Counted from the stretch's first letter, positions 43,758-60,795 are shown. The stretch: 64,000 nucleotides of DNA from Kiritimatiellia bacterium (GCA_050949565.1 JBMNFY010000017.1:1696001-1760000), one strand, 5' to 3'. Notes: generated from the letters alone by a model not told the origin. Made by a program: numbers and translations.

Positions 43758-45880
43758 CGTGTTTTCCTTTCAAACTTCACAAGGGGCACGATAACTTCTT
43801 CGATGGCTACACCGCCGTGACCTACGATGGCATCTCCCGGGTTCACGAATGCGTCGCGGCCACCGGCCACCAGGGGGAAATAATCTGCGGGCAACCCGAC
43901 CGGCTGCCACTCGTGGGCAAACGGGAAGGCCCCAGCCACCTGAGCGCGGAGTTCCGGCGTTGGATAAACACGAACCCGCTCGCCGCGAGTTTCGGCAATC
44001 ACACCTTCAGACGGGCGGCCTTTGCCGTCGCATTGGATGTTGCCGTGATCGGCCGTCAGCCAGACCTCATAGCCGTAATCCAGCAGTTGGCCGACCATCG
44101 CGGAAAGAAATCCTGCATGGCACCACTGCTTGATCTGGTTGTGCATCCCGGCCGAGCCGAGTTGCATGCCGTGCATGATCTTATCGACCTTGTCCACGAC
44201 CAGCCCCACCACCTTGGTCTTCCCGGGGTGGATTGCGGAGTCGAGGACGCCCGCAGCATCGCCGTCGCCAAGGCCGCGCTGGTAGGCGACATCCAGTCGG
44301 GACAGGCCATGGCCTTCCCAGAACTGTTTCCAGAGTTTCTCTTCGCTGTTGGTCGAGTTGATGGATGACGGGAAATAGAGCGGCGGCTTGCCCGAGAAGA
44401 TCGATTGCCGCGATACCGAGGTCAGCGTCGGAATCCAGGCGAAGGTCGCGGATTCGCGCATGACCAGATTGGCGTCCCGCTTTTGCAGAAGCTGGCGAAT
44501 GGTCACCCACTGGTCCAGGGCCAGGCCATCGACCACGATCAGCGCAGCACGGCTACTGCCAGAGTCCTCGATGTCCCGGGCCAGGCGGCGCGGCACATGG
44601 TGCAGCATGGCCGGATTGGTCGGCGGCAAGTTGATCAGACTGGAGTAGTTATGAACTAACCACTGATAAAACAAATCATTGATCTGATTCTGCACAGCCA
44701 AGAATTTTGAACCACGAATGGACACTAATTCACACGAATTTCCTTTTTCCGATTCGTGTTTATTCGTGTTCATTCGTGGTTCGCCATGAATCAGGGCTGA
44801 TAGCTCGGCCCATTTCAATGCAAAGGCGGTCCAGTCAGAGTAACGCGCTTCAGCAGTGGGCAGTTCCTTCTCGACAAGGCCAAACAAGCGAGAGATCCGT
44901 AGCTCGTCATCGTCCACGCCGGACGTGGCGATGCCGCTTCGAACCCAGGACCCGGCATCCACTTCAATGCCTTTGGCCTCGACTGGGGTGAGTTTTCCTT
45001 CCAGGAACAAGTTGTCGATATAGACCTTGATGTCCTGATGGTCGAACGGCAGGCGGTCAGGGCCGGGATAACGGAAGTGCGTAGTGCGAGGTGCGTAGTG
45101 CGTTTCAGGCTCTCGAACTTCGGTTCTCGCACTTCGCACTCCGCACTTCGCACTCAAAAACACCGGCCAGCGTTCCTGTAAAAAGGCGAAGAATGCCTCA
45201 TCGTCCGGAACGATTTCGGAGAGCGGCCAGGCTTTGAAATCAGGGGTGAGGGACGAGGGGCGAGGGGCGAGTTGAAGGGATTGGATCAGGCGATGGACCA
45301 GGATATCGGGGAGTCTGGTTTTTCCGTAGTGCAGACGGAGCAAGGCACGAAGCAGCTCCACCTCATTGGCGATCAGCTCAGCGGCGATGCCGAACACATG
45401 ACGGAGAATGAAATCCTTGGTGGCGTTGTCGCCCATGCGATCCGGCGGCGACTTGCGCTGGGCTTCAAAAAGCGAATCCAGCAAGCTCCGGTCGAGCTTC
45501 TCAATGACCGGATAGCTCAGGTTGGGAAAGAGATCCCCCAAGTTGAATGAAAGCTTGCGGCCCGCCTGGAGTAGGTCGTAAGGCAAGGATTCCAGCTCCG
45601 CATCCTGCAAGCGGAGGACTACCACCAGATCGGTGTGCTCACCCCGGTCCCATATCGAACGGTACTTTGACTCATAGGCGTATCTGAATTCGACCGGATC
45701 ACTGAACTCGATCAGGTCGAAGCCGCGCCCACGTAATTCAAGCGCCAGTTTCTCCTCGGTCAGCAGACAATCCGGGTCCGCGACCAAGGTCAGCTTGCTG
45801 ACGTTGGGCACAAAGTCGTTCAGGATGGCGTCTCGCCAGGAGGGAGAGTGCGAAGTGCGTTGTGCGGAGTGCGATGTCAT
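43754..45880 (-). CDS. pglZ: BREX-3 phosphatase PglZ
   Basis: DPDCLL, VVDGLALDQW, PTLTSVSRQ, TADHG, HGG. Confidence 0.92.
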   Translation of the reverse strand: MTSHSAQRTSHSPSWRDAILNDFVPNVSKLTLVADPDCLLTEEKLALELRGRGFDLIEFSDPVEFRYAYESKYRSIWDRGEHTDLVVVLRLQDAELESLPYDLLQAGRKLSFNLGDLFPNLSYPVIEKLDRSLLDSLFEAQRKSPPDRMGDNATKDFILRHVFGIAAELIANEVELLRALLRLHYGKTRLPDILVHRLIQSLQLAPRPSSLTPDFKAWPLSEIVPDDEAFFAFLQERWPVFLSAKCGVRSARTEVREPETHYAPRTTHFRYPGPDRLPFDHQDIKVYIDNLFLEGKLTPVEAKGIEVDAGSWVRSGIATSGVDDDELRISRLFGLVEKELPTAEARYSDWTAFALKWAELSALIHGEPRMNTNKHESEKGNSCELVSIRGSKFLAVQNQINDLFYQWLVHNYSSLINLPPTNPAMLHHVPRRLARDIEDSGSSRAALIVVDGLALDQWVTIRQLLQKRDANLVMRESATFAWIPTLTSVSRQSIFSGKPPLYFPSSINSTNSEEKLWKQFWEGHGLSRLDVAYQRGLGDGDAAGVLDSAIHPGKTKVVGLVVDKVDKIMHGMQLGSAGMHNQIKQWCHAGFLSAMVGQLLDYGYEVWLTADHGNIQCDGKGRPSEGVIAETRGERVRVYPTPELRAQVAGAFPFAHEWQPVGLPADYFPLVAGGRDAFVNPGDAIVGHGGVAIEEVIVPLVKFERKTR

Positions 45881-46251
45881 TCTCTTGTACTCCGATCCAG
45901 TGATGTACGAAGTCCGCCTATTGCCCGACTCAGGGTGATGCATTTTTCGCAGATATTGGAGCAATCGGATTCAGAAACATATCCCAGCGATTTTGCGAGC
46001 TGAATCTGGCTTCTTACTTCTGCGCATGATCCTCGGGCAATGGACAAAAACTGTTTAAACTCTTGTCTGCTGTATCGTTCGAAGCCCTCGGCGATGTTAG
46101 ACATCACTGAAACGGATGCACGCTGAATCTGATCCCGAAGCCCCCAATCTTTGGAAAACTCGCCATCCCTCGTTAGACCGTAAATTGTCACGGACAGGTC
46201 ATGGGCCATCTGCCAGATTTGCAAGTCCTCGAATCGTTCGACTTTGCTCAT
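45877..46251 (-). CDS. four-helix-bundle protein (23S rRNA IVP / Avd-like)
   Basis: FEDLQIWQ, QIQRASVSVMSNIAEG, FLSIARGSCAEV; ATGA-coupled at both ends. Confidence 0.92.
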   Translation of the reverse strand: MSKVERFEDLQIWQMAHDLSVTIYGLTRDGEFSKDWGLRDQIQRASVSVMSNIAEGFERYSRQEFKQFLSIARGSCAEVRSQIQLAKSLGYVSESDCSNICEKCITLSRAIGGLRTSLDRSTRE

Positions 46252-59906: not shown

Positions 59907-60304
59907 GGCAACTCCTTCGTCGTTGCAGGGGCGAGGGACGAGGGTTTAGAGGCGAGTTTGGCCATCAACCCGTTGGTCATTTTGTTGATTTCTACTTGTA
60001 AACTGAGAATAAGGCCGAGCTGGTCAGTTGAGAGATACCCGAGTCGATGGGCAATCAGTAATTGGGTCTCAACCTCTGCCAGTGAACCCTTTGAGATTGA
60101 CAAGAACCGATGGAATTCTTTTGTTGAGTTTCTTGCATGGCCTTCAGCAATGTTTGATGGAATCGCAACAACGGCTCGTCGAAGCTGATTCGTCAATCCA
60201 TATAACTCTTCCGTAGGAAAAGTTCTGGTTGCTTGATAAACCATTTCAACCAAATCCAACGCTTTCTGCCAAACAATCAAATCCTTGTAACTCTGCACGC
60301 TCAT
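59903..60304 (-). CDS. four-helix-bundle protein (23S rRNA IVP / Avd-like)
   Basis: [41 protein letters not shown]; ATGA-coupled at both ends. Confidence 0.93.
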
Positions 60305-60795
60305 ATCTCGTCCCTCACCCCTAACTCCTCGCCTCTCATATCAACAATCAGCGCATCGACCGAGTCATAGCTGCGGTACTCGGGATGGCCGGTTTCGGCG
60401 TACAAAAGCCTCCCGGAATTCATGATTCCGTTCCACGAAGCCACCACGGCCCGATTTCTCGAAATGGACTGCAGCAGGCGCAAGGGGTCCTGCTGGAGAT
60501 CCTTGTCGAAGAGGATCTCGAGATTATCCAGCACCACCGGTGCTTGAGCCTGGTCCGCGATCTGATCGAGGATGCCCGGCAACCGAAGCGACCGCTGCTT
60601 TGCCGTCAGCTCAAGCAGTTCGCCTGAAAGCGCCAGATTGACGTTGACGACAGATGAGCCGAATTCCTCGGCAATATCCCGAAGAACGCCGGTCTTGCCG
60701 GAACCGGTCTCACCCACCAGCAACACCAGACGGTGATACAAGCCTTCGGCTGCCTGGAGGGATCGTTTTATCTTGTCGTGAATCGGCTCGGCCAT
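60301..60795 (-). CDS. brxF: BREX-3 P-loop protein BrxF
   Basis: YHRLVLLVGETGSGKT, LDNLEILFD, DPLRLL, YAETGHPEY. Confidence 0.9.
   Translation of the reverse strand: MAEPIHDKIKRSLQAAEGLYHRLVLLVGETGSGKTGVLRDIAEEFGSSVVNVNLALSGELLELTAKQRSLRLPGILDQIADQAQAPVVLDNLEILFDKDLQQDPLRLLQSISRNRAVVASWNGIMNSGRLLYAETGHPEYRSYDSVDALIVDMRGEELGVRDEI

Follow-up and report, generated by a model that had tools for sequence, protein, structure and literature searches.

Gene cassettes and gene-less inverted repeats inserted in a BREX type 3 operon

What are short inverted repeats doing inside the reading frames of a defence operon, and how did they get there? The question is raised by a 64,000-nucleotide (nt) stretch of DNA from a Kiritimatiellia bacterium (GCA_050949565.1, JBMNFY010000017.1:1696001-1760000), which we call the window. 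On its minus strand, at 43.7-61.7 kb, lies a bacteriophage exclusion (BREX) type 3 operon, identified by profile matches of its genes. A preliminary description, made from the sequence alone, listed 23 repeat intervals in this operon. These were sorted into three families (A, B and C), each paired with a small gene. Two of the small genes, 4HB_A and 4HB_B, encode four-helix-bundle (4HB) proteins; the third encodes a GxxExxY protein. A repeat search recovered all 23 intervals in three families and at the same coordinates.

The repeats are lineage-specific DNA insertions. We compared the operon with L009, a close BREX-3 operon from another organism (94% identical; 82.8-95.8% nucleotide identity per block). 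Each boundary between homology blocks coincides with a repeat, and L009 holds shorter, non-repeat sequence there. Six net length differences were measured. The window has 72, 54, 54, 57, 51 and 24 nt extra, all divisible by three. We also aligned PglZ, BrxHII, PglXI and BrxC with nine homologues, a check that the preliminary description had proposed. The repeat peptides map as additions confined to the window copy, at poorly conserved positions. The repeats are absent from L009 and from two other relatives, L001 and L041. The arms and palindromes of the operon are as follows, from high to low coordinates.

60306-60339: B arm upstream of 4HB_B; four 7-nt units with a GAGGG-type core.
59927-59956: B arm downstream of 4HB_B, the inverted partner of 60306-60339.
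58071-58141: C palindrome in brxC, in frame; fold -21.6 kcal/mol, z -3.06; 82 nt against 10 nt in L009.
57628-57652: solo B arm in the N-terminal part of brxC.
57015-57080: A palindrome in brxC, in frame; fold -42.5 kcal/mol, z -7.42.
56783-56812: solo B arm in the C-terminal part of brxC.
56689-56710: solo heptamer arm of a fifth family in brxC, in frame.
56307-56369: A palindrome in brxC, in frame; fold -33.8 kcal/mol, z -5.52; 19 residues more than in nine homologues.
55887-55917 and 53896-53925: C arms bounding a 2028-nt cassette (53894-55921, minus strand) with an AlbA_2/HATPase_c_4 gene and a 131-residue open reading frame (ORF).
53934-53964: solo arm of a fourth family, GxxExxY-type with a 9-nt period, directly adjoining the C arm 53896-53925.
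53528-53598: B palindrome in pglXI, in frame; fold -39.8 kcal/mol, z -5.12; 93 nt against 39 nt in L009.
51007-51037: C arm at the PglXI/GxxExxY junction, on one side of the GxxExxY gene.
50562-50642: C palindrome on the other side of the GxxExxY gene.
49206-49283: C palindrome in brxHII.
49050-49073: solo B arm in brxHII.
48598-48659: A palindrome in brxHII.
47878-47953: B palindrome in brxHII.
46985-47015 and 46873-46900: A arm pair in brxHII, enclosing 84 nt homologous to helicase sequence of L009.
46254-46285: A arm at the C-terminus of brxHII, the upstream arm of 4HB_A.
45847-45874: A arm at the N-terminus of pglZ, the downstream arm of 4HB_A.
45242-45271: solo B arm in pglZ.
45075-45155: A palindrome in pglZ.
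44709-44782: C palindrome in pglZ.

The intervals are of several kinds: ten compact hairpins, three arm pairs around genes, one pair around 84 native nt, and solo arms. The term palindromic, first applied to all of them, fits the ten hairpins; the rest are arms, paired or solo. The ten fold at -21.6 to -48.1 kcal/mol (z -3.1 to -7.4) with stems of 24-30 bp. At most 3 of 200 shuffles matched the weakest fold, and none matched the other nine. The repeats were also said to keep the frame inside coding sequences. This is so for 22 of the 23 intervals, each wholly within a minus-strand ORF; the remaining one, 51007-51037, straddles the PglXI/GxxExxY junction. Translation of the intervals reproduced the odd peptides quoted earlier. 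In pglXI, the B palindrome at 53528-53598 places 24 residues where six native ones stood.

Three families do not exhaust the inventory, as the arms at 53934-53964 and 56689-56710 belong to two more. For 53934-53964, no partner arm was found within the window; judged by eye, this arm is similar to those of a GxxExxY gene at G000:C17:1382786. The cognate gene of 56689-56710 is absent from the window; by eye, its unit is that bracketing a 4HB gene in the BREX-3 locus L035. Arrays of this type are abundant genome-wide. Those of period 7 number 1307, against 194 in a 5-nt block shuffle; those of period 8 number 440, against 32.

Cassettes with genes are likewise present in some operons and missing from others. 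The helicase/PglZ junction was seen in three states: with the 4HB_A cassette in the window, with a GxxExxY cassette and C arms in L014, and empty in L009. The 4HB_A cassette replaces the native 39-nt junction (452 nt here against 39 nt in L009) and the helicase frame continues through its upstream arm. The 4HB_B region measures 436 nt here and 59 nt in L009. The site of the 2028-nt cassette is 81 nt in L009, and L014 carries the matching upstream arm. In other operons, cassettes are also found at the brxC/pglXI and pglXI/brxHII junctions. In L009, the first of these junctions (5894-5974), nominally "empty", has a short motif of its own, three GTGACC-type units, and is maybe not a pristine empty site.

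An independent metagenome-assembled genome (MAG), L023, has the A and C palindromes of PglZ at identical sites in diverged sequence, with unit numbers equal to those of the window. The BREX-3 operons of both L023 and L014 carry families A, B and C. Hence, these families travel with the island and multiplied inside it. We rejected growth of arms from core-like native sites, as exact A or C cores were lacking at 11 native sites of L009. Two B cores did occur at native L009 sites, in long segments and at about the background rate.

All arms follow one plan. Arms of 4HB genes have 3-6 units, each a 5-nt core and a 2-nt spacer, and the core is private to the gene lineage. Those of GxxExxY genes have about three units of 8-10 nt. 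In the one palindrome that was compared arm to arm, by eye (45075-45155), the 5-nt cores pair and the 2-nt spacers do not. The palindrome folds have internal loops of 1-2 nt at the core/spacer spacing. Hence, we describe the arms as core-plus-spacer in design. Units per arm are narrowly set: four in 11 of 13 arms of family A, five in 123 of 255 arms of the AACG family, and three in 166 of 168 arms of an 8-mer family that brackets two GxxExxY genes. Thus, the arms are not open-ended microsatellites. Higher-order tandem repeats, in which a longer unit bears arrays, occur at G000:C17:978706-979828, C20:28282-30042, C15:27248-29156 and C1:40716-41317, with spacings of about 181, 105, 623 and 289 nt, respectively.

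Three small genes of the operon lie between such arms.

59903-60304, minus strand: 4HB_B, four-helix-bundle protein (PF05635/TIGR02436); TIGR02436 128.2 bits, NF008911 149.4 bits.
50645-51028, minus strand: GxxExxY gene (PF13366/TIGR04256); TIGR04256 132.2 bits, second profile 123.4 bits, both above cut-off.
45877-46266, minus strand: 4HB_A, four-helix-bundle protein (PF05635); PF05635 126.6 bits, TIGR02436 118.3 bits.

The pairing of families with genes proposed at the outset is borne out. A arms 45847-45874 and 46254-46285 bracket 4HB_A, B arms 59927-59956 and 60306-60339 bracket 4HB_B, and the GxxExxY gene lies between the C arm 51007-51037 and the C palindrome 50562-50642. Gene-containing and gene-less versions coexist, and each repeat family matches the arms of one small gene. 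All three genes run in the operon's direction, each beginning right behind its upstream arm. Both 4HB genes were rightly related to the proteins of 23S rRNA intervening sequences (IVS), since they match PF05635/TIGR02436 above the curated cut-off. The sole solved relative found for 4HB_A by sequence is PDB 2gsc (E 6.5e-17). Matching of 4HB_B to the Avd model is weak (26 bits, cut-off 80). The suggestion that GxxExxY proteins are PD-(D/E)xK-like also agrees with our alignment of 32 sequences, in which D...(D/E)xK is kept, with DxK in the window copy. A search by sequence found no solved relative of the GxxExxY protein.

Beyond the locus, each gene lineage owns a private arm family. This genome has nine near-full-length 4HB genes and six GxxExxY loci, each between inverted short-unit arrays. 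No two of the nine 4HB genes share a unit, and six of the units are from rare families. Other BREX-3 loci, from several phyla, contain ten full-length 4HB and three GxxExxY genes. All have arms and all are co-oriented (counts from custom profiles, with a 4HB fragment in L056 and a GxxExxY fragment in L060 excluded). Both proteins are common in the phylum. Among 151 genomes sampled, TIGR02436 was present in 97, often in multiple copies, and TIGR04256 in 74.

We tested flanks at the best locus from each of 29 genomes per protein family. For 4HB, three loci were dropped with flanks too short. At 22 of the 26 testable loci, the upstream/downstream inverted repeat exceeded the maximum of 95 mismatched-pair controls, nearly always with period 7. 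For GxxExxY, 24 of 29 loci exceeded the 95th percentile of 113 controls and ten the maximum; one locus was too short, and the control is inflated by a terminus common to these arms. Other arrangements of 4HB genes were also seen. Those at G000:C8:62003-62198 and G000:C18:11082-11283 have long one-sided arrays of about 28 units, against the usual 3-6. Orthologs of the C8 gene at L093-L096 (G013, G032, G004 and G054) are flanked on both sides by complete palindromes. Their loops, of about 50 nt, are conserved across genera, and the layout is more complex than arm-gene-arm.

Where do the families occur in this genome? Strictly defined, all arms of families A (8/8) and B (6/6) are in the island. 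If one mismatch is tolerated, the arms at most 20 kb from their own gene are 11 of 15 for A and 5 of 7 for B. Of the 13 arms of family C, 10 are in the island. The families spread through the whole genome include AGGAnTT (144 arrays), AACGnnn (134) and the GCAGAG 8-mer (121). Units of these three recur in the arms of two 4HB genes, C17:395446 and C8:62233, and two GxxExxY genes, C15:17355 and C7:32940. These family counts are core-based and leave 770 arrays unassigned, many of them the same units with mismatches and some GC-rich noise. They replaced single-linkage by shared 10-mers, which lumped 1226 of 1307 arrays as different families abut. In the window itself, arrays of genome-wide families (AACG, GGTTTC, AGGAnTT, GTCGC and 8-mers) cluster outside the island at 16505-16987, 22342-22552 and 26032-26418. 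Further clusters lie at 31334-31424, 34911-34948 and 36519-36638, and different families often abut.

Absence of covariation between repeat family and protein clade had been named in advance among the grounds for refuting the pairing, and covariation was found. Arms track protein identity. In pairwise comparison of 55 4HB genes, upstream arms are shared by 26 of 31 pairs at 80% protein identity or more, 16 of 38 at 65-80% and 6 of 151 at 50-65%. Below 50% the figure is 14 of 1265, and most of these involve one gene with an extra upstream palindrome of the AACG family. Orthologs at 71-94% identity keep the core on both sides. Those of the C8 gene retain the AACG core at 81-90% identity, have AACAT at 66% and have other cores at 59% or less. 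In the 4HB_B clade (67-88% identity), arms switch between two cores one base apart, with mixed arrays in both arms.

Co-occurrence of a dispersed family with its cognate gene is supported. In 60 family-level genomes, AGGAnTT arrays are present in 11 of 11 with a 4HB ortholog of at least 65% identity, against 12 of 49 in which none was found. By genus, the figures are 10 of 11 and 3 of 16. All nine AGGAnTT orthologs examined carry those arms; by eye, their upstream flanks are alike, with a similar end of the preceding ORF. For the AACG family, arrays occur in 5 of 7 genomes with the ortholog against 13 of 53 without.

The cassettes and gene-less derivatives exist as DNA insertions. Their origin and upkeep are explained best, and in our judgement with somewhat better than even probability, as follows. 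Selfish cassettes like the 23S IVS, together with gene-less derivatives, colonised a mobile BREX-3 operon in the manner of REPIN-RAYT systems, each protein recognising its own arms. A cassette would consist of a small set of genes, co-oriented and with no promoter of its own, enclosed by a pair of inverted arms of fixed size. Gene-less arm pairs would be 24-30-bp hairpins that spread as DNA, some families genome-wide and A and B within the island. In so tightly packed an operon, only frame-keeping insertions in variable loops would have survived. The survivors would be transcribed and presumably translated as 8-24 extra residues. Each protein may recognise the periodic cores of its own arms and so be needed for their maintenance or spread. 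Rings of 4HB protein, as in the homopentameric solved relative, could read the arm units, and GxxExxY proteins could supply a nuclease. In RNA, the stems would be substrates for RNase III, like those of the 23S IVS.

The nearest precedent for the cassettes is the Coxiella 23S IVS, as outlined in the sections consulted of PMC4990558. This selfish element of 428 nt has a 28-bp terminal inverted-repeat stem, which RNase III cleaves, and an ORF for the 4HB protein S23p. Three tandem heptamers precede the ORF and vary in copy number between strains. The Xanthomonas homologue (2gsc) is a homopentamer of four-helix bundles (PMC4990558). The window cassettes are alike in having a 4HB ORF between inverted repeats, a stem of about 28 bp and heptamers directly upstream, as in Coxiella and Leptospira (PMC4990558, same sections). 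They differ in location, the sites being BREX genes and the gaps between them instead of 23S helix 25 or 45. Gene-less derivatives occur here, many read in frame, and a second, unrelated protein family (GxxExxY) has the same arms. Excision by RNase III is known for the 23S IVS, whereas RNA-library contigs retain the elements described here.

The spread of gene-less copies recalls REPIN-RAYT systems. Shared features are dispersed palindromes, a cognate gene flanked by them, one family per lineage and co-occurrence (PMC8049555 and PMC3733652, from the parts consulted). The cognate gene also seems to sit at a conserved place here, judging by eye from the upstream flanks of the AGGAnTT family. Unlike RAYTs, our genes belong to PF05635 and PF13366 and do not encode a Y1/HUH (IS200-like) transposase. 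Further differences are that the arms are tandem units of 7-10 nt, that some families are restricted to one island and that insertions fall within coding sequence.

Several findings weigh against selfish cassettes with arm recognition. Target-site duplication, a criterion for miniature inverted-repeat transposable elements (MITEs) and other transposons with terminal inverted repeats, was not seen at the junctions read. No target motif was found at the insertion sites. One B arm pair spans 773 nt of brxC collinear with L009. One-piece cut-and-paste insertion does not predict arms around native sequence, be it this segment or the 84 nt in brxHII. With the solo arms added, such pairs suggest that the insertion unit may be the arm and not the whole palindrome. 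No model at hand accounts for arms enclosing native sequence plus solo arms. The 4HB proteins have no known catalytic activity. Two unrelated folds share one arm architecture, which common trans-acting machinery would fit as well as self-recognition. Families D (29 arrays), P (19) and L (22) lack a cognate gene in this 92%-complete genome, as far as found, and inverted arrays also flank ordinary genes (nrdR, VWA/Bat-like and DUF58). Linkage by descent explains part of the arm-protein covariation, which is expected from linkage alone. The Fisher values for co-occurrence (4e-6, 0.02 and 3e-4) are indicative and overstate significance, the genomes being related and many of them incomplete. Finally, arrays occur in genomes in which no close ortholog was found (12/49 for AGGAnTT, 13/53 for AACG), several of these being MAGs that are 65-82% complete.

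Could the hairpins matter at the level of RNA instead? The stems might be kept as RNase III sites, or as translation or stability signals that tune the defence operon, with the 4HB proteins as RNA-binding modulators. DNA insertion would then be the origin of the stems and not their purpose. The 23S IVS, which is of the same build, is excised by RNase III (PMC4990558, sections as above). All ten palindromes fold into 24-30-bp stems. Like the three small genes here, all 13 in other BREX-3 loci run in the direction of the operon, and each begins immediately after its upstream arm. The locus, its cassettes and their flanks are represented in contigs from three RNA libraries; those of X15 reach across both 4HB genes together with their two arms, and across the GxxExxY-AlbA_2 stretch including its C repeats. 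However, the hairpins are retained in these contigs, which lack RNA ends and come from libraries that may contain DNA. Some joints do skip an element. Their two sides are separated by 44-151 other letters, and the joint at 59907-60344 is also present in a DNA run. We therefore rejected splicing of hairpins out of RNA and read the skipping joints as variants, from other strains, that have no insertion. All that the RNA-library contigs allow us to say is that transcripts do not lose the hairpins wholesale. Cutting within coding sequence would destroy the message. Operons 94-96% identical have no hairpin at all, so BREX-3 does not need them. The spacers of the palindrome at 45075-45155 are not complementary, and arrays genome-wide adjoin all sorts of genes. 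We consider a role in RNA unlikely.

Alternatively, the repeats may be host-wide and resemble repetitive extragenic palindromes (REPs), generated and maintained by other host machinery or by recombination. The 4HB and GxxExxY genes would be passengers that land among arrays, with no specific recognition. The arrays beside ordinary genes, the families with no cognate found and the arrays in genomes with no close ortholog found would all follow. Location outside the island is REP-like too: long open frames hold 94 of 554 strictly defined arms (17%) but 75% of random positions. Within the island they hold 13 of 14 arms. Random landing among three dominant families would not give nine 4HB genes nine units, six of them rare, nor would it place A and B only next to their own genes in the island. 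Co-occurrence (11/11 against 12/49), retention of the core on both sides by orthologs at 71-94% identity, and related lineages with mixed cores one base apart in both arms also count against it. The passenger reading is improbable.

Phase variation was a further candidate. Slippage by 7 nt shifts the frame (7 mod 3 = 1) and might toggle BREX genes, as gain or loss of a heptamer in coding sequence would do; heptamer number in the Coxiella element varies by strain (PMC4990558, sections as above). The brxC gene is indeed frameshifted. Its two parts are separated, relative to L009, by a 1-nt insertion near 57354-57357. The extra base is absent from variant contigs in four runs; these differ elsewhere too, and hence come from relatives. 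The frameshift could be real decay or an assembly error. We rejected a repeat-caused break of brxC, which has a single extra base distant from any array. Units per arm are narrowly fixed, the window and L023 are equal at their common PglZ palindromes, and no indel of 7 nt or a multiple of 7 appears among the matches listed from four runs. Toggling by slippage is very improbable.

An assembly or binning artefact (the source has 21 contigs, the closest DNA is from bioreactor and digester metagenome runs, where the locus is present, and repeats are hard to assemble) has a negligible chance of being the answer, given that the cassettes are crossed, with 0-2 differences, by independent contigs of other public runs and that L023, an independent MAG, shares the PglZ palindromes and their positions in diverged sequence.

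Other known elements share single features with the selfish cassettes that we favour. Rickettsia palindromic elements lie in frame within protein-coding genes and add peptide segments to the products. No cognate gene is known for them. They differ from the present repeats in being unrelated in sequence and organisation, and here three families stand in one operon beside their genes. Other MITEs that insert in frame in protein-coding genes are also known (PMC5896051, in the part consulted).

Heptamers have been met before. TAACTGA direct repeats of Beggiatoaceae, cyanobacteria and Bacteroidetes are described as unexplained in the portion of PMC4679880 consulted. Like ours, they form arrays of 2-6 copies, are mostly intergenic near start codons and patchy across phyla, and coexist with other heptamer families (PMC4679880). 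They differ in being almost all direct (there is one inverted set), and the same portion of the paper names no 4HB gene (PMC4679880). A link between TAACTGA heptamers and the present system is conjecture. The 4HB proteins belong to the same superfamily as Avd of diversity-generating retroelements, a nucleic-acid-associated partner of a mobile-element enzyme (PMC10053308, in the excerpt consulted). By contrast, no features of such retroelements were seen in our operon, though no search was aimed at reverse transcriptase, and the Avd match is far below the cut-off.

The literature consulted gives neither small gene a role. The function of PF05635 4HB proteins is called unknown or uncharacterised (PMC4990558, sections as above) and GxxExxY proteins are tabulated as "Unknown" (PMC3424549, in the table consulted). 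Among open-access and bioRxiv texts, we found none that links 4HB or GxxExxY genes to flanking tandem-repeat arms or gene-less derivatives.

A ring protein offers an analogy for how arms might be read. TRAP-type rings are homo-oligomers that bind short core repeats separated by spacers. The likeness lies in a core with a non-conserved spacer, a fixed repeat number and a ring homo-oligomer; it is analogy only, with no homology. By extension, and tentatively, 4HB "IVS proteins" and GxxExxY proteins might be the protein halves of a widespread, unrecognised class of selfish element. One protomer would bind each unit of a fixed-length array, as in TRAP, and the proteins would maintain or spread arm pairs. 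The 23S IVS would be a special case, and the heptamer families of cyanobacteria, Beggiatoaceae, Bacteroidetes and the present phylum would be footprints of the class. We think this generalisation possible, though doubtful.

What would follow? If the proposal is true, the recognition code is a simple 5-nt core that changes by single bases, and it could be deciphered and rewritten. Were recognition specific and modular, these genes would be a natural set of orthogonal protein/nucleic-acid pairs. The 4HB genes, GxxExxY genes and heptamer arrays, once linked, each gain a candidate role: a protein, a periodic site that would be bound by that protein alone, and hairpins as derivatives. The locus also shows that the enzymes of a defence operon can hold over a dozen hairpin insertions that keep the frame, a point relevant to how parasites are tolerated by BREX or disable it, to annotation, where odd peptides are repeat-derived, and to the assembly of such genomes.

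The host operon and its neighbours have the following genes, all on the minus strand.

60805-61734: excisionase-type helix-turn-helix gene, upstream of brxF.
60301-60795: brxF, the first BREX-3 gene; NF033453 BREX_3_BrxF 200 bits, cut-off 50.
57348-59906: brxC/pglY, N-terminal part; PF19557 DUF6079 positions 1-811, 1289.8 bits.
55916-57313: brxC/pglY, C-terminal part; DUF6079 positions 824-1238.
54238-55986: first AlbA_2/HATPase_c_4 gene (Pfam).
53883-54278: 131-residue ORF with no family match.
51036-53702: pglXI methyltransferase (PF01555).
49282-50679: second AlbA_2/HATPase_c_4 gene (Pfam), between C palindromes 50562-50642 and 49206-49283.
46248-49313: brxHII SNF2 helicase, by profile match.
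43754-45964: pglZ, BREX-3 type; NF033449 889.5 bits, cut-off 250.

Assignment to BREX-3 rests on the joint presence of PglZ_3, BrxF, DUF6079 (BrxC/PglY), an N6_N4 methylase and an SNF2 helicase. The last codons of brxF extend into the B arm 60306-60339. The N-terminus of pglZ is read through the A arm 45847-45874, with the start just before that arm. Downstream of pglZ, at the position checked for BrxA, NCBIfam profiles gave no match to the ORF 43002-43757. Matches to transposase families were likewise lacking among the 17 ORFs scanned in and beside the locus. PglXI is 96% identical to its counterpart in L001, 95% in L009 and 87% in L041, and these records are labelled with three different phyla. 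Hence, the operon is horizontally mobile. Its G+C content is 0.49-0.59 over much of its length, against about 0.60 in the rest of the window. The helix-turn-helix protein (60805-61734) has a MAD1-like C-terminus (74.7 bits, cut-off 80). Downstream of the operon, 41783-42940 gave a weak SIR2-type anti-phage match (44 bits, cut-off 500). The island may be larger in content than BREX alone.

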